From Escherichia coli (GTDB lineage Bacteria > Pseudomonadota > Gammaproteobacteria > Enterobacterales > Enterobacteriaceae), in assembly GCF_003018115.1 (NCBI RefSeq), contig NZ_CP027457.1: a DNA stretch of 64,000 nucleotides. One strand, written 5' to 3'. The notes beneath the pieces are model-generated. The model did not search any database. It was given only the letters and a program-made list of their open reading frames with translations, and was not told where the DNA came from. Positions 20,237-28,936 of the stretch are shown here, in pieces. A program made the position numbers and the translations under genes. The first letter of the stretch is position 1, and each line of letters opens with the position of its first letter.

Positions 20237-20311
20237 AGCTCTGAGGCATTTTCACTCTGGCAATGCGCTTGACATCCTCCACGCCCTAAAGGACGTGGAT
20301 TCCTGCTACGT

Positions 20312-21520
20312 TCAGGCTGTCGCCTGAATCATTTCGGTGGGTTCCTGCTTCAACGGGCGGCCTGACTGCACCATCCCTCCACAGGCAAGAACGGCGTGCC
20401 CCGCCGCTAAAATGTTACGAGCGCCGTTTACATCGGCGTTCGCTGTATATCCACATACCGGGCATCTGAATTGACTTTGTGACAGGCGATTTTCTTTCGC
20501 TGTATGACCACAGCACGCGCAACGCTGGCTTGTGTACGCTGGCGGAACAGCAAGCACCTGACCGCCACGCCAGAGCTGCTTGTACTCAAGCTGGCGGCGC
20601 ATTTCATACCAGCCCTGATCCAGTATCGAACGGTTTAAACCTGATTTTGCCCGGACATTGCGCCCCGGCAGGCTGACCGTACCCGATGCTGACTTTGACA
20701 TGTTGCTGACCTTCAAATCCTCAATGACTATCATTGCGTGGTTTTTGCTGACGGTCGTTGTGACTTTGTGAAGGTAGTCCCTGCGGATATTTGCGATACA
20801 GGAATGCAGTCGCTGTATTTTGCGTTTCTGCTTCTGCCAGTTGTTGCTGAATTTGACCTTGCGGCTTAACTGTCGCTGAAGTCTCGCCAGCTTCTTCTGG
20901 TTTTTCTGAAAACTGTTTACAGGCTCAAAGGCTGTGCCATCTGACAGCGTGGCGAGTTTAGCCACGCCAGCATCCAGCCCGACCATTGATGCTGAAGGGT
21001 GAACCGGAGTTGATACTTCACTTTCTGTCTGAATACTGATGTACCACTTACCGCAGGACTGGCTGACCGTGACATTTTTCACAACACCCGTGACCTGACG
21101 GCTATTCCGGTAGCGCATCCAGCCCAGTTTCGGCAGAAAAATACGGCTGTTTTCCTGATCGAGCTTAACGCCCTGCGGGTAGCGGAATGCATCATTCTGT
21201 CCCCGCTTTTTGAATCGGGGAAAAGCAGCCCGCTTCTGGAAGAAGTTTTTGTAAGCCCGCTCAAGGTCTTTCAGTGACTGTTGCAATGGCTGTGAGGGCG
21301 AATCTTTAAGCCATTGCGTTTCAGTGGCGTTTTTCCACTCAACCAGCCAGGAAGCCATTTTCCCGTAAGGGATGTATTTATTACCGGCCTCATGATTCTC
21401 ATTCTGACGTGCCAGAGCACGATTGAAAACGAAACGACATGCGCCTGCGAAGCGCCTCATTTCACGCTCCTGTTGACCACCGGGTCTTAACTGGAATTTA
21501 AATGCCTGTAGTCGTTTCAT
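20312..21520 (-). CDS. tnpB: IS605-family TnpB/OrfB, RuvC-like with C-terminal CxxC...CxxC zinc finger (402 aa from [10 protein letters not shown])
   Basis: [14 protein letters not shown]-terminus, C-terminal CACCGH...CPVCGY zinc finger typical of TnpB. Confidence 0.85.
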
Positions 21521-21542
21521 GGGCCAAATCATACTTTGGCCT

Positions 21543-21958
21543 ATGAAAAAAGAAACCGATATCCGACGCGGAAGGCATTGTGTTTTCCTGATGCATGTTC
21601 ACCTGGTCTTCGTTACTAAATACCGACGTCAGATTTTTGACTATGACGCGACAGAAAAACTACGCACTTACTTTTCAAATGTATGTGCTGATTTTGAAGC
21701 TGAACTGGTTGAAATGGATGGCGAACCAGATCACGTCCATTTGTTAATTAACTATCCTCCCAAACTGGCGATATCCAGTCTGGTAAACAGCCTCAAAGGC
21801 GTATCGGGTAGGTTACTGCGACGAGATCGACCAGATATTGCAGCCAGGTATTACTACAAAGCGTTTTGTGGAGTCCTGGCTATTTTGCCAGTAGCTGCGG
21901 TGGTGCACCAATATCCATCATCCGCCAATACATTGAACAACAGCAAACACCTGGTTAG
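21543..21958 (+). pseudogene. tnpA: IS200-type Y1 (HuH) transposase TnpA, apparently frameshifted before the catalytic-Tyr motif
   Basis: HVHLLI HuH motif in frame 0; conserved C-terminal SSCGGAPISIIRQYIEQQQTPG is encoded in the +2 frame after ...YYYK (shift near 21858-21863); the frame-0 ORF instead runs on to 22046. Confidence 0.6.
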
Positions 21959-22015
21959 GTGGAAAACCGCACCTTATATCCCCGCCCTGAATGAACGGGG
22001 TTTTACGGCGCACCG

Positions 22016-23570: not shown

Positions 23571-24413
23571 TTACTCCGGCACGATCCAGCTTACGGTGGC
23601 GTGCCCGGTGCCTGCCGGAACCAGTTTGCTGTGCAGCCACGGCAGCACGTTATTCATCTGTTGTTCCAGCTTCCACGGCGGGTTAATCACAATCATGCCG
23701 GAAGCGGTCATGCCACGGCGATCGCTGTCTGGCAATACCGCCAGTTCAATTTGCAGAATTTTGCGAATGCCGGTCGCTTCCAGGTCGTGGATCATGCGCT
23801 TGATTTGCTGACGCAGCACCACCGGATACCACAATGCGTAAGTGCCCGTGGCGAAACGTTTGTAACCTTCTGCTATCCCACTGACTACCGCCTGATAGTC
23901 GGTTTTCATTTCATACGGCGGATCGATAAGGATTAAACCACGGCGAGAAACCGGCGGCAGTTTGGCCTTAAGCTGCTGGAAACCGTCGGCTTTTTCCACG
24001 CGCGCACGGCTGTCTTTCTGAAATTCAGAACGCAGCAACGGGTAATCGCTCGGGTGCAGTTCGGTCAGTTGCAGACTGTCCTGCTCGCGCAGTAGCTGGC
24101 GAGCAATCAACGGCGAACCGGGGTAGTAACGCAACTGACCGCTACGGTTGAAGTGTTTTACCACATTGATGTACGCCTCCAGCTCCGCAGGCAAATCGTC
24201 CTGCTGCCAGATACGGGCGATACCTTCGAGATATTCGCCGGTACGCTCGGCATGTTCGCTACCTAACTGATAACGCCCGGCCCCTGCGTGGGTGTCGAGA
24301 TAGAGAAACGGTTTATCTTTCTCTTTCAGCGACTCGATGATCAGGCTCTGAACGGTATGTTTAAGGACGTCGGCGTGGTTGCCAGCGTGAAAGCTGTGGC
24401 GATAACTGAGCAT
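23571..24413 (-). CDS. rlmJ: 23S rRNA (adenine2030-N6)-methyltransferase RlmJ (280 aa; start at MLSYRHSFHAG)
   Basis: Matches RlmJ/YhiR; track ORF has a 17 aa upstream extension. Confidence 0.85.
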   Translation of the reverse strand: MLSYRHSFHAGNHADVLKHTVQSLIIESLKEKDKPFLYLDTHAGAGRYQLGSEHAERTGEYLEGIARIWQQDDLPAELEAYINVVKHFNRSGQLRYYPGSPLIARQLLREQDSLQLTELHPSDYPLLRSEFQKDSRARVEKADGFQQLKAKLPPVSRRGLILIDPPYEMKTDYQAVVSGIAEGYKRFATGTYALWYPVVLRQQIKRMIHDLEATGIRKILQIELAVLPDSDRRGMTASGMIVINPPWKLEQQMNNVLPWLHSKLVPAGTGHATVSWIVPE

Positions 24414-24615
24414 GGGTAAAGGTGTTCCGGTAAGTAAAAATCGGCCCGTATTCGGGGCGCACAAAAGCCTATCAGGACAGTATACCGAAAAGAGGCCGCC
24501 GCCGCGAAAGCGTAACGTTTCTCATTGAAATTCACTACACTTAACCCCATGCTACACACATTATGTAAAGCGCCTGTTGAGCGCTTCCTTAACCTCTTTA
24601 ACCAGGACTGCGCTA

Positions 24616-26658
24616 ATGACGAATCCGTTACTGACTCCCTTTGAATTGCCTCCGTTTTCTAAAATTCTCCCGGAACATGTCGTTCCAGCCGTGACTCAGG
24701 CGCTGAACGACTGCCGGGAAAATGTGGAGCGCGTAGTAGCGCAAGGGGCACCGTACACCTGGGAAAATCTCTGCCAGCCGCTGGCGGAAGTGAACGATGT
24801 GCTGGGGCGTATCTTCTCCCCGGTCAGCCACCTGAACTCGGTGAAAAATAGCCCGGAACTGCGTGAAGCGTACGAACAGACCTTGCCGCTGCTGTCGGAA
24901 TACAACACCTGGGTAGGGCAACATGAAGGGCTGTATAAAGCGTATCGCGACCTGCGCGATGGCGATCATTACGCCACGCTGAACACAGCTCAGAAAAAAG
25001 CGGTTGATAACGCCCTGCGTGATTTTGAACTCTCTGGCATAGGTCTGCCGAAAGAGAAACAACAGCGCTACGGTGAGATTGCGACCCGTCTTTCCGAGTT
25101 GGGCAACCAGTACAGCAACAACGTCCTCGATGCGACGATGGGCTGGACCAAACTCGTCACCGACGAAGCGGAACTGGCGGGGATGCCAGAAAGCGCGCTG
25201 GCTGCGGCAAAAGCCCAGGCCGAAGCGAAAGAGCTGGAAGGTTATTTGCTGACGCTGGATATTCCAAGCTACCTGCCGGTAATGACCTACTGCGACAACC
25301 AGGCTCTGCGTGAAGAGATGTATCGCGCTTACAGCACCCGCGCCTCCGATCAAGGCCCGAACGCCGGTAAATGGGACAACAGCAAGGTGATGGAAGAGAT
25401 CCTCGCTCTGCGTCACGAACTGGCGCAACTGCTGGGTTTTGAAAACTACGCCCTCAAATCGCTCGCCACTAAAATGGCAGAAAACCCGCAGCAGGTGCTT
25501 GATTTCTTAACCGATCTGGCAAAACGCGCGCGTCCGCAAGGTGAAAAAGAGCTGGCGCAACTGCGTGCCTTCGCTAAAGCCGAATTTGGCGTCGATGAGT
25601 TGCAGCCGTGGGATATCGCGTACTACAGCGAAAAACAAAAACAGCACCTCTACAGCATCAGTGACGAACAGCTGCGTCCGTACTTCCCGGAAAACAAAGC
25701 GGTTAACGGCCTGTTTGAAGTGGTGAAACGTATTTACGGCATCACCGCTAAAGAGCGTAAAGATGTTGATGTCTGGCACCCGGATGTACGTTTCTTCGAA
25801 CTGTATGACGAGAACAACGAACTGCGCGGTAGCTTCTACCTCGACCTGTATGCCCGTGAAAACAAGCGCGGCGGGGCGTGGATGGATGACTGCGTAGGCC
25901 AGATGCGCAAAGCTGACGGTTCTCTGCAAAAACCGGTCGCGTATCTGACCTGTAACTTTAACCGCCCGGTAAATGGTAAACCGGCGCTGTTTACCCATGA
26001 CGAAGTGATCACCCTGTTCCACGAGTTCGGTCATGGTCTGCATCATATGCTGACCCGCATCGAAACCGCCGGTGTATCCGGGATCAGTGGGGTGCCGTGG
26101 GATGCGGTCGAACTGCCGAGTCAGTTTATGGAAAACTGGTGCTGGGAGCCTGAGGCGCTGGCGTTTATCTCTGGTCACTACGAAACCGGCGAACCGCTGC
26201 CGAAAGAGTTGCTGGATAAAATGCTGGCGGCGAAGAACTACCAGGCGGCGCTGTTTATTCTGCGCCAGCTGGAGTTCGGCCTGTTCGATTTCCGCCTCCA
26301 TGCCGAGTTCCGCCCGGATCAGGGAGCGAAAATCCTCGAAACTCTGGCAGAAATCAAGAAACTGGTTGCCGTAGTACCGTCTCCATCCTGGGGCCGTTTC
26401 CCGCACGCTTTCAGCCATATTTTCGCCGGTGGTTATGCGGCAGGTTACTACAGCTACCTGTGGGCTGACGTACTGGCGGCAGATGCTTTCTCGCGCTTTG
26501 AGGAAGAGGGCATTTTCAACCGTGAAACCGGGCAGTCGTTCCTCGACAACATTCTGAGCCGTGGCGGTTCAGAAGAGCCGATGGATCTGTTCAAACGCTT
26601 CCGTGGTCGTGAACCGCAACTGGATGCGATGCTGGAGCATTACGGTATTAAGGGCTGA
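24616..26658 (+). CDS. prlC: Oligopeptidase A (680 aa; start at [10 protein letters not shown])
   Basis: M3 peptidase HEFGH zinc motif; OpdA sequence. Confidence 0.9.
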
Positions 26659-26665
26659 TCATTCA

Positions 26666-27418
26666 GTGAAAATCTGCTTAATTGATGAAACAGGCACCGG
26701 AGACGGTGCCTTATCTGTTCTGGCGGCTCGCTGGGGGCTGGAACATGATGAAGACAACCTGATGGCGCTGGTATTAACGCCGGAACATCTGGAATTGCGC
26801 AAGCGTGATGAGCCAAAACTTGGCGGCATCTTTGTTGATTTTGTTGGCGGAGCGATGGCGCATCGTCGCAAATTCGGCGGTGGTCGTGGTGAGGCGGTGG
26901 CGAAAGCGGTGGGCATTAAAGGCGATTATTTGCCGGATGTGGTGGACGCTACCGCAGGGCTGGGGCGCGATGCCTTTGTGCTGGCTTCGGTCGGCTGCCG
27001 CGTGCGGATGCTGGAGCGTAATCCAGTCGTTGCCGCGCTACTCGACGACGGCCTGGCGCGTGGATATGCGGATGCGGAAATCGGCGGCTGGTTGCAGGAG
27101 CGTTTGCAGTTAATTCACGCCTCCAGCCTGACGGCGCTGACCGATATTACTCCGCGCCCGCAGGTGGTCTATCTCGACCCGATGTTCCCGCATAAGCAGA
27201 AAAGCGCGCTGGTGAAAAAAGAGATGCGCGTGTTTCAGTCGCTGGTGGGACCGGATCTTGATGCCGATGGATTACTGGAGCCTGCACGCTTGCTGGCGAC
27301 CAAACGCGTGGTGGTAAAGCGCCCGGACTACGCGCCACCGCTGGCGAATGTCGCCACGCCAAACGCGGTAGTCACTAAAGGGCATAGGTTTGATATTTAT
27401 GCCGGAACGCCAGTGTAA
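26666..27418 (+). CDS. rsmJ: 16S rRNA m2G1516 methyltransferase RsmJ (250 aa; GTG start at [10 protein letters not shown])
   Basis: Sequence matches RsmJ/YhiQ from (M)[13 protein letters not shown]; the longer ATG ORF overlaps the prlC 3' end out of frame. Confidence 0.8.
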
Positions 27419-27424
27419 AAGTAA

Positions 27425-27456
27425 AGCAGGGTAGCGTTATCGCTACCCTGCTTTCT
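27425..27456. terminator. Bidirectional terminator hairpin between convergent rsmJ and dtpB (agcagggtagcg/cgctaccctgct)
   Basis: 12 bp perfect stem with 4 nt loop read from sequence. Confidence 0.5.
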
Positions 27457-27466
27457 GCAAGAATAA

Positions 27467-28936
27467 TTAATGGCTTTCCGGCGTCGCAATCATGCGTTTC
27501 AGCCACGGCACCATCAACAGCATCACTACTGCAACGCCCAGTGTGACCAGACCAATCTTACCAAACACGTTGGTATAGACAGGCAACGTCTCAAGCGGAT
27601 CGGTAATGTTGTCTGGTACTGCGGTAAATGTTGCCACATAGCCGCCCAGCAAGAACGCGGCAGCCTGCGTCAGGAACCACATCCCGAGAATAAAGCCCAT
27701 CAAATGTTGCGGCACCAGAGCGGCAACCATCGCCAGACCCAGGGCGCTAATAAACAGTTCACCCAGGCTCTGGAACAAGTAAACCAGCACGATAAACCAC
27801 GGCGATGTCAGTCCTTGTGCATCAGCAAACCACATTCCCGCAGCTGCCGCCGTCAAAAAGCCCAGTGAGCACATAAACATGCCGAGAGTAAATTTCATCG
27901 GCATCGAGAGGTCTTTGCCTTTGTTACCCAGATGCGTGTAAATGCCTGCCAGTATTGGGCTGGCGAGTACCACCCAGAACGGGTTAAGCGCCTGGAAGCT
28001 GACCGGGTTGATGGAAAAACCGAGAATTTCATGATGCACGTTGTTGATGGCAAAGAAGTTCAGCGATGTTGGCATCTGGGCGTAGAGAATGTAAAACACC
28101 ACCGCTTCGAGCATCAGGACAAAGGCGACAAACATTTTATTGCGCCCGGTTTTATCCAGCTTGAATGCCTGACGAAAGAAGATGATGGTGACGACGATGG
28201 AGAGAACAATCAGCACCAGATTGGCGACTTCTACGTTGTGCATCAGCCAGGCGCAGACGAAGATCATCACTACGCTGCCAAGTAATACGTACAACAGTTT
28301 GCTGAAGCTCATTGGCCGGAAGTCGGGCTCAGAACCAATGTCTTTCACCATTCCACGACAGGCGATGTAAACCAGTAATGCGATAATTAACCCCGCCCCG
28401 CACAGGTTGTAGGTGACAGAATAACCGAATCTATCAGCGATCACAGGGGCCAGCGATAACGCTATCAACGAGCCGATGTTGATCGACATATAGAACAGGG
28501 TGAATGCGCCATCAAGGCGCGGATCTTTCGGCGGATAGCACTTCGAAAGCAAGCTGGCTGGGTTAGCTTTAAACAGGCCGTTACCGACAGCGATAGTCCC
28601 CAGGGCAATGAAAATCAGGTCAGGCTTAAGTAGCGACATGCCAGTCATGAAGTAGCCAATCGCCAGCACAAGTGCTCCGAGGACAATGGTGCGTTTGGTC
28701 CCCAGCAGGTGGTCGCCGACATAGCCGCCAATGGAAATGAGGCCATAGACCAGCGCAGCAAAAGCACCAAAAGTGACAAAAGCCTGTTCTTGCGAGAATC
28801 CAAGCTGCTTAACGAAGAAAACCGCCAGTACGCCCTGCACGCCGTAGTAGCCGAATCGCTCCCATAACTCGACAAAAAAGATCATGAAAAATGGGCGAGG
28901 TTGCTGCAGCATCCCCATGGGTGTTGTTGTATTCAT
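27467..28936 (-). CDS. dtpB: Proton-dependent di/tripeptide permease DtpB (489 aa)
   Basis: POT-family MFS transporter, matches DtpB/YhiP. Confidence 0.9.

Follow-up and report, generated by a model that had tools for sequence, protein, structure and literature searches.

Two genes of the Escherichia coli DNA analysed here, rsmJ and yhiM, come out too long whenever the longest open reading frame or the first ATG is taken as the start of translation, and for rsmJ the upstream candidate starts lie inside the coding sequence of the preceding gene, prlC. Where does translation of the two genes begin, and does the choice of the start codon bear on the operon structure? A sequence-only reading of the window (the whole stretch of DNA that was analysed, 64,000 nucleotides) had placed both starts at GTG codons and had warned that longest-ORF or ATG-first calls mislead at these two genes, which is indeed the case. 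We are highly confident that GTG is the genuine start codon of rsmJ and of yhiM, and both are already annotated in this way. The finding is correct but ordinary; it is contained in the curated annotation and, for yhiM, also in the literature.

Genes and comparison sequences

The regions of rsmJ and yhiM both match the E. coli F9792 chromosome (NZ_CP024273.1) with 100% identity, and the gene coordinates given here are the RefSeq CDS of F9792 mapped onto the window, with K-12 MG1655 used for comparison. Both regions were found in nearly every complete E. coli genome. The window runs in reverse orientation relative to K-12. The genes in question are as follows:

24616–26658, plus strand: prlC (oligopeptidase A) CDS, 680 aa, start ATG (RefSeq CDS)
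26666–27418, plus strand: rsmJ CDS (16S rRNA m2G1516 methyltransferase), 250 aa (RefSeq, NF008012, PDB 2pgx)
33733–34785, minus strand: yhiM CDS (DUF2776 inner-membrane protein), 350 aa (RefSeq CDS, PF10951)

The gene lengths in K-12 MG1655 are equal to those in the window (rsmJ, b3497, 753 nt; yhiM, b3491, 1053 nt), and the K-12 start GTGs lie at 3,643,132 on the minus strand and at 3,634,841 on the plus strand, respectively. For rsmJ (yhiQ, b3497) no difference of substance was seen: the K-12 gene also encodes a 250-aa product and starts with a GTG 7 nt after prlC (CDS 3642380–3643132; prlC ends at 3643140). According to PMC3531124, it was Basturea et al. (2012) who assigned the m2G1516 methyltransferase activity on 16S rRNA to YhiQ.

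Within the window 5 of the 54 mapped CDS start with GTG (rsmJ, yhiM, yhiN, nikC and shuU), and for 18 of the 54 an in-frame ORF longer than the annotated one is available. Even prlC belongs to the latter, its longest ORF opening at TTG 24577, 39 nt upstream of the real start ATG 24616, with positions 1–680 of NCBIfam NF008159 covering residues 14–693 of this ORF. Calling by longest ORF or first ATG gives too long a product for about a third of the genes in the window.

The start codon of rsmJ

The candidate starts in the rsmJ frame and the only Shine-Dalgarno-like element are listed below:

26561–26563, plus strand: decoy start GTG inside prlC, opening the longest rsmJ-frame ORF of 285 aa (codon read-out; anti-SD duplex +0.4 kcal/mol)
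26624–26626, plus strand: decoy start, the first upstream in-frame ATG (264-aa version), made by the prlC codons GAT GCG
26650–26654, plus strand: weak Shine-Dalgarno-like AAGGG lying within the final prlC codons (Lys-Gly), at a distance of 11 nt from the GTG (duplex −4.9 kcal/mol)
26666–26668, plus strand: true rsmJ start codon GTG (RefSeq, HMM, PDB, homologues, cross-species DNA)

The ORF from 26561 is, as had been claimed, the longest one in the rsmJ frame and opens inside prlC; its first codon had been given as ATG and is in fact GTG. Among the ORFs beginning with ATG the longest is the one from 26624, with 264 aa. That the gene instead starts at 26666–26668, where the direct codon read-out shows GTG, is supported by RefSeq, profile, homologue and cross-species DNA evidence. 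The distance to prlC was likewise given correctly: prlC ends with TGA at 26656–26658, and after a spacer of 7 nt the GTG begins 8 bp past the last base of the stop codon.

The NCBIfam equivalog for RsmJ, NF008012, matches over its full length, positions 1–249 of 250 covering residues 36–284 of the 285-aa ORF, and the score of 537.2 bits lies above the cutoff of 422. Furthermore, Pfam PF04445 (SAM_MT) was matched with an E-value of 2.7e-104. The PDB chains 2pgx, 2oyr and 2pkw start at MKICL or MQICL, residue 1 of 2pgx and 2oyr corresponding to the GTG codon, and RsmJ of the window aligns from 1 to 250 with 2pgx. Comparison with curated orthologs, which had been proposed as a check, thus returned the same starts for both genes in RefSeq F9792 and K-12, in the RsmJ HMM, in Pfam DUF2776 and in the PDB constructs; the constructs and the HMMs are not independent evidence, since they derive from the same annotation. 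Among the homologues, 105 of 120 RsmJ clusters share the N-terminus at GTG 26666, and nine start at an ATG inside prlC, including a 264-aa cluster of 2384 members.

For the cross-species comparison 80 species loci were collected, of which 67 could be aligned as far as residue 1. Of these 67 species, 63 have GTG, TTG or ATG at the codon aligned to 26666 (over all 67: GTG 51, TTG 6, ATG 6, GTA 3, ATC 1), and the three GTA cases are Yersinia, where a GTG is found 9 nt upstream. No other ATG, GTG or TTG is available upstream for rsmJ in 41 of the 67 species, owing to an in-frame stop that is often only 3–18 nt away. The 14-aa extension from 26624 is missing or stop-blocked in many species and, in the species with a 7-nt spacer, is 57% identical to that of the window, compared with 86% for the first 14 residues of RsmJ and 97% for the last 14 residues of PrlC. 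Because the length of the spacer varies between species, the frame relation of prlC and rsmJ is not kept, which rules out that the overlap encodes a conserved N-terminal extension. GTG 26561 and ATG 26624, both upstream and in frame, are best explained as by-products of the conserved PrlC C-terminus read in another frame.

With respect to ribosome binding, GTG 26666 has the best anti-SD pairing among the candidates in the rsmJ frame, −4.9 kcal/mol to UUAAGGG at a long spacing of 11 nt. At the position of AAGGG other species carry the purine-rich variants AAAGG, GAAGG and CAGGG.

The start codon of yhiM

The features around the yhiM start, all on the minus strand, are the following:

34783–34785, minus strand: true yhiM start codon GTG (RefSeq, Pfam, homologues, PMC6604978)
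34792–34797, minus strand: strong Shine-Dalgarno GAGGAG, separated from the GTG by 6 nt (−8.7 kcal/mol; same motif in PMC6604978)
34807, minus strand: transcription start A, transferred from K-12/MC4100 (PMC6604978), K-12 and the window being nearly identical here
34814–34819, minus strand: −10 element TTCAAT, the same in K-12
34837–34842, minus strand: −35 element CTGAAA (ATGAAA in K-12, one base different; PMC6604978 compared with the window)
34825–34884, minus strand: decoy in-frame ATGs 34884, 34869 and 34827 (codon read-out), upstream of the mapped transcription start
33682–33715, minus strand: terminator-like hairpin, 18 nt past the stop codon (hairpin scan; PMC6604978)

As had been proposed, yhiM starts at GTG 34783–34785 and not at ATG 34884, in agreement with RefSeq, Pfam, the homologues and the published transcription start. 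Three in-frame ATGs lie upstream of the GTG, at 34884, 34869 and 34827, with anti-SD duplex energies of +1.0, +1.5 and −2.5 kcal/mol, respectively. Pfam PF10951 (DUF2776) matches with 525 bits, positions 2–347 of 348 covering residues 35–380 of the 383-aa ORF, which places YhiM in this family. The N-terminus at the GTG is common to 96 of 120 YhiM homologue clusters, and the sharing clusters include proteins of only 52–61% identity from Alphaproteobacteria, Actinobacteria and Bordetella, typically 348–350 aa in length. In the 85–90%-identical relatives (L084–L086) an ATG stands at the codon of the E. coli GTG and a GGAG or GGGG motif is kept just upstream; further upstream their DNA diverges sharply, carries indels and is devoid of the decoy ATGs.

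The decisive evidence comes from primer extension in MC4100 and MG1655, by which the transcription start of yhiM was mapped to an A at −22 relative to the GTG, under one condition, i.e. stationary phase at pH 5.5; the transcript is a monocistronic RNA of 1.1 kb, with a stem-loop after the stop codon (PMC6604978). Since the mRNA begins only at this A, the three upstream ATGs are not on the yhiM transcript. In the window the yhiM mRNA would accordingly begin 22 nt before GTG 34785 and carry GAGGAG-N6-GTG. Compared with K-12 yhiM (b3491, PMC6604978) the window has the same 350-aa DUF2776 protein, the same GTG, the same GAGGAG-N6 and the same −10 element; it differs in the proposed −35 element (CTGAAA versus ATGAAA) and a few other SNPs, and the transcription start itself was mapped in K-12.

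Both starts had been said to affect the annotation of operon structure. This holds for rsmJ; because yhiM is monocistronic (1.1-kb transcript, PMC6604978), only the rsmJ start bears on it. With the curated annotation already right, the start codons matter very little. Large automatic protein collections still contain over-long versions of RsmJ (264 aa) and YhiM (364 aa), the YhiM version from ATG 34827 forming a cluster of 4700 members.

Could the upstream starts nevertheless be used? If RsmJ were made from ATG 26624 or GTG 26561 and YhiM from ATG 34884 or 34827, the products would be an RsmJ of 264–285 aa, overlapping prlC by 35–98 nt, and a YhiM of 364–383 aa (peptide MHISILAGIPEEFK...). The frames are open, ATG is the commoner start codon, and gene callers do yield the 264-aa and 364-aa clusters mentioned above (2384 and 4700 members). 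This explanation is close to refuted, and we give it next to no credence: any upstream rsmJ start is removed by the in-frame stop in 41 of the 67 species, the extensions are poorly conserved, are covered by no family profile and stand in a prlC–rsmJ frame relation that varies between species, SD pairing at the upstream codons is negligible, transcription of yhiM begins past all three of its upstream ATGs, and the yhiM relatives lack these ATGs and carry indels in the region. A milder version, in which most of the product comes from the GTG and a small amount of a longer isoform arises from ATG 26624 (rsmJ) or from ATG 34827 (yhiM, on a transcript from an unmapped upstream promoter), is somewhat less remote and still very improbable. 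ATG 26624 is present in many Enterobacteriaceae, but its conservation is explained by the PrlC residues Asp-Ala (GAT GCG), and the 14-aa extension behind it evolves freely; initiation there would have to take place inside an ORF translated in another frame and with a weak SD (−2.9 kcal/mol). For yhiM the mapping of the transcription start in a single growth condition leaves some room, but the upstream ATGs are not conserved. Genuine GTG starts in both genes remain our preferred reading. The supplements of TRAINSPOTTER N-terminomics, TetRP and Giess et al. (TIS-profiling/N-terminomics) contain no entry for rsmJ, yhiQ or yhiM.

The prlC–rsmJ junction

The tight linkage of prlC and rsmJ, also part of the sequence-only reading, was borne out across species. 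In every Enterobacterales locus having upstream DNA prlC lies directly upstream of rsmJ, and in 55 Enterobacterales species the two genes are on the same strand with a spacer between −4 and +21 nt and a mode of 7–8 nt, as in coupled gene pairs. For example, the stop and start codons overlap as ATGA in Pectobacterium and Dickeya and as TGATG in Edwardsiella, and they abut as TGAGTG or TAAGTG in Pantoea and Erwinia. The junction is a clean, conserved case of a non-ATG start located a few nucleotides past the upstream stop codon.

A crude consensus scan, restricted to sigma-70, revealed no promoter of this type in 24300–27600 and no terminator before the GTG. The two elements flanking the gene pair are:

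24523–24553, plus strand: sigma-32-type promoter-like sequence CATTGAAA-N14-CCCCATGCT upstream of prlC (read from the sequence)
27423–27454, no strand assigned: strong palindromic hairpin where rsmJ and dtpB converge, probably terminating transcription in both directions (−24 kcal/mol on either strand)

The sequence at 24523–24553 resembles the heat-shock promoter consensus and is a candidate promoter. Conlin and Miller (2000) are said to have found opdA(prlC)–yhiQ to be cotranscribed under sigma-32. In the searchable literature no paper was found that names prlC together with rsmJ, or opdA together with yhiQ. With the heat-shock-type promoter-like sequence ahead and the strong hairpin after rsmJ, prlC and rsmJ would form one transcription unit. 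RsmJ would then be made from GTG 26666, for which the weak AAGGG within the last prlC codons is the sole Shine-Dalgarno-like element, and ribosomes that have terminated on prlC would start again at the GTG close by.

Translational coupling between neighbouring genes whose stop and start codons overlap or lie very close together is known from the junctions of the trp operon. Like these pairs, prlC and rsmJ share the strand, have a short spacer and combine an SD-like motif in the upstream ORF with a weak downstream start; unlike them, the spacer is usually 7–8 nt instead of an ATGA overlap, and coupling is here deduced. The gene arrangement by itself makes translational coupling likely. There is a lesser but appreciable chance that the GTG 26666 start is kept and rsmJ is translated by independent binding of 30S subunits, not through coupling to prlC. 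A purine-rich SD-like motif is found in most species, and the Vibrionaceae have a GTG or TTG start with a GGAG motif of their own and no prlC upstream, so that a non-ATG start does not need coupling. Against independent binding speak the weak SD of the window with its 11-nt spacing and the position of this SD within the translated prlC ORF; moreover, the two genes are never more than a very short spacer apart, and stop–start overlaps of the kind typical of coupling occur in several species. Coupling to prlC is therefore kept as the likelier arrangement.

A conserved hairpin inside rsmJ

The terminator scan also flagged, as an unplanned observation, a hairpin within the first codons of rsmJ, which is the item of this analysis with some research value:

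26692–26711, plus strand: conserved mRNA hairpin AGGCACCG-GAGA-CGGTGCCT at rsmJ codons 9–16 (terminator scan, covariation)
26711–26722, plus strand: U-rich tract TTATCTGTTCTG, 3' of the hairpin, made of the U-richest synonymous codons (codon usage)

The hairpin begins 33 nt after the prlC stop, 26 nt inside rsmJ, and is followed by TATCTGTTCT. With a stem of 8 bp, 6 of them GC, the loop GAGA and a folding energy of −15.2 to −15.8 kcal/mol it has the stem and loop of an intrinsic terminator (GC-rich, 5–14 bp, loop of 3–8 nt). The U-tract UUAUCUGUUCU contains 7 U in 11 positions and is interrupted; its tail score of about 3.7 is similar to those of the yhiM and uspA terminators and lower than that of the uspB/pitA terminator (5.3). 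Since 111 loosely similar terminator-like motifs occur in the window, the combination of hairpin and U-tract alone is not evidence. Folding energy was discounted as well, a control region at +151 folding about as stably and the same 111 loose motifs being present.

What sets the hairpin apart is its evolution. Across 56 Enterobacterales sequences pairing in the stem reaches 97%, and six of its eight pairs have changed on both sides; all five measures of stem covariation lie above the values of all 500 shuffles, and pairing drops to 31–59% when the partner columns are slid. The stem is retained in about 55 species by compensatory changes, some of which alter the protein, namely Thr ACC with Gly GGT versus Ala GCC with GGC, Ala GCT with Ser AGC, and Val GTC with Asp GAC. 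Single-sided changes of the stem, read on the sense strand, give 20 G·U and 4 A·C combinations; this excess of G·U points to the mRNA as the folded molecule, and a structure of the antisense strand was rejected on the same counts. Codons 5–19 have the lowest synonymous diversity of the whole rsmJ gene (0.31 versus a mean of 0.73), and no dip in synonymous diversity was found in the last 200 prlC codons. Downstream of the stem the codon choice is strongly biased: Leu16 is TTA in 80% of the species versus 11% gene-wide, Ser17 is TCT in 82% versus 10%, and Val18 is GTT in 100% versus 15%. At the pair 26696/26707, exact matches within E. coli numbered 3505 for A-T, 1905 for G-C, 9 for G·T and 0 for A·C; these counts are supportive rather than decisive, as tight physical linkage contributes to them.

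Vibrionaceae, Shewanella and Pasteurellaceae, in which prlC does not precede rsmJ, lack the hairpin; this correlation is confounded by taxonomy. Rfam contains no family at the hairpin, its sole match being a chance-level JUMPstart elsewhere (E = 2.6), and no description of the hairpin was found in the searchable literature. Among the entries listed in the Term-seq supplements PMC7815308 and PMC12207403 there is none for rsmJ or prlC and none with K-12 coordinates beginning 36430 or 36431.

Several origins of the structure were considered and set aside. A mere by-product of Gly-Ala codons (GGCGCC being self-complementary) was rejected as the sole cause, since both synonymous and non-synonymous changes covary at six of the eight pairs, and it is further disfavoured by the absence of the A·C combination in E. 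coli. The loop is of the GNRA type because of the Gly-Asp codons (GGN GAY); a mimic of 16S helix 45 that would serve RsmJ autoregulation was dismissed, the loop being lost outside Enterobacteriaceae while the stem stays. A CsrA GGA site was discarded on account of a motif that is not conserved, and a 3'-derived sRNA of prlC on account of the last 200 prlC codons, which show no excess synonymous constraint.

Intra-operon hairpins that act as attenuators or 3' stabilisers and set unequal expression are known from the rplL–rpoB attenuator and the malE–malF REP element. The rsmJ hairpin resembles these in its A-rich 5' flank, GC-rich 8-bp stem, 4-nt loop, U-rich 3' flank and covarying stem, and in its position 33 nt past the stop of the preceding gene; it differs in lying inside the coding sequence of the downstream gene and in its interrupted U-tract, and it is known here from sequence. 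As a hypothesis, the A-rich flank, GC stem and U-rich flank would suit an intrinsic terminator or attenuator of modest strength, or an element stabilising the 3' end of the prlC mRNA; in either case rsmJ expression would be lowered relative to prlC. We suggest, quite tentatively and without counting it the probable outcome, that 26692–26722 may function as such an intra-operon terminator/attenuator or stabiliser and that, together with the GTG and the 7-nt junction, it may form one device setting a low RsmJ:PrlC ratio. The hairpin would then end or protect most heat-shock-induced prlC transcripts, only a fraction continuing into rsmJ, and read-through might require ribosomes that start again at the weak GTG and so unfold the hairpin. 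Should the hairpin act as an attenuator, it would explain how the genes of a heat-shock protease and of a low-abundance rRNA methyltransferase can share a promoter and be expressed unequally.

A minor difference from other strains concerns RsmJ residue 10, which is Thr (ACC) in the window and in 2pgx, and Ala in the 1905 other E. coli genomes of the G-C haplotype and in Shigella 2oyr.

Start codons of rsmJ and prlC

The GTG start of rsmJ (26666, + strand) is not peculiar to E. coli, as GTG or TTG in place of ATG was also found in Photobacterium, Vibrio, Salinivibrio and Grimontia (L067-L083, rsmJ loci of Vibrionaceae and others, locus position 1501), where the gene carries its own GGAG motif and is not preceded by prlC. 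Since the non-ATG start is kept even under these circumstances, a weak start codon seems to be a long-conserved property of rsmJ.

Besides rsmJ and yhiM, prlC is a third case of an overlong ORF (window 24577-24618, + strand). Its longest ORF is opened by TTG 24577, 39 nt 5' of the real start ATG 24616, and the alignment of the oligopeptidase A profile to this ORF begins at residue 14. Approximately 65 nt 5' of the prlC start the following element was located:

24523-24553, + strand: sigma-32 (heat-shock) type promoter-like sequence CATTGAAA-N14-CCCCATGCT

This promoter-like sequence agrees with the heat-shock regulation that is reportedly exerted on prlC-yhiQ (yhiQ being rsmJ).

Hairpins within and downstream of rsmJ

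Two hairpins were found, one inside the coding region and one behind it:

26692-26722, + strand: hairpin (8-bp, GC-rich stem) and U-rich tract, rsmJ codons 9-19
27423-27454, between the convergent rsmJ and dtpB: perfect palindromic hairpin of 14 bp, -24 kcal/mol on either strand

Cross-species comparison revealed that the stem of the internal hairpin is kept via compensatory changes, some of them non-synonymous, in about 55 Enterobacterales species, and along the gene this region exhibits the strongest synonymous constraint of rsmJ. Within E. coli, the A-T haplotype was counted 3505 times, G-C 1905 times, G·T nine times and A·C not once. Rfam holds no entry for this hairpin, which may be a candidate intra-operon terminator, attenuator or mRNA stabiliser. 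The downstream hairpin is probably a bidirectional terminator.

Composition and origin of the yhiM region

Between 33733 and 38680 the DNA is AT-rich, its GC content being 0.475 in yhiM, 0.34-0.37 in the two DUF4049 genes and 0.325 in the intergenic region, against a mean of 0.50 for the window as a whole. YhiM relatives of 79-90% identity were retrieved from metagenome contigs only; the next-closest homologues (~60% identical) belong to Alphaproteobacteria, Actinobacteria and Bordetella, a pattern that suggests horizontal acquisition. Of 5426 E. coli genomes, ~1170 are devoid of the region. In the window neither of the DUF4049 paralogues is disrupted, whereas yhiL of K-12 is a pseudogene, and the proposed yhiM -35 hexamer (34837-34842, - strand) reads CTGAAA instead of ATGAAA in K-12, a difference of one base.

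Differences from the reference strains near the ars genes

Colinearity with E. coli strain F9792 is broken at 15820-17552, where 1.7 kb, adjoining arsC, stands in place of 0.33 kb and comprises:

16103-17116, - strand: ArsP-type permease (PF03773) ORF
17148-17531, + strand: ArsR-family HTH regulator

The window thus derives from a strain that is related to F9792 but distinct from it. According to the annotation transferred from F9792, an insertion element follows:

~20300-22000, between dinQ and arsR: IS200/IS605-family element
20312-21520, - strand: tnpB (TnpB/InsQ RNA-guided endonuclease)

The tnpA of this element is annotated as frameshifted. In K-12, by contrast, the dinQ-arsR interval is occupied by the small RNA genes agrA and agrB.
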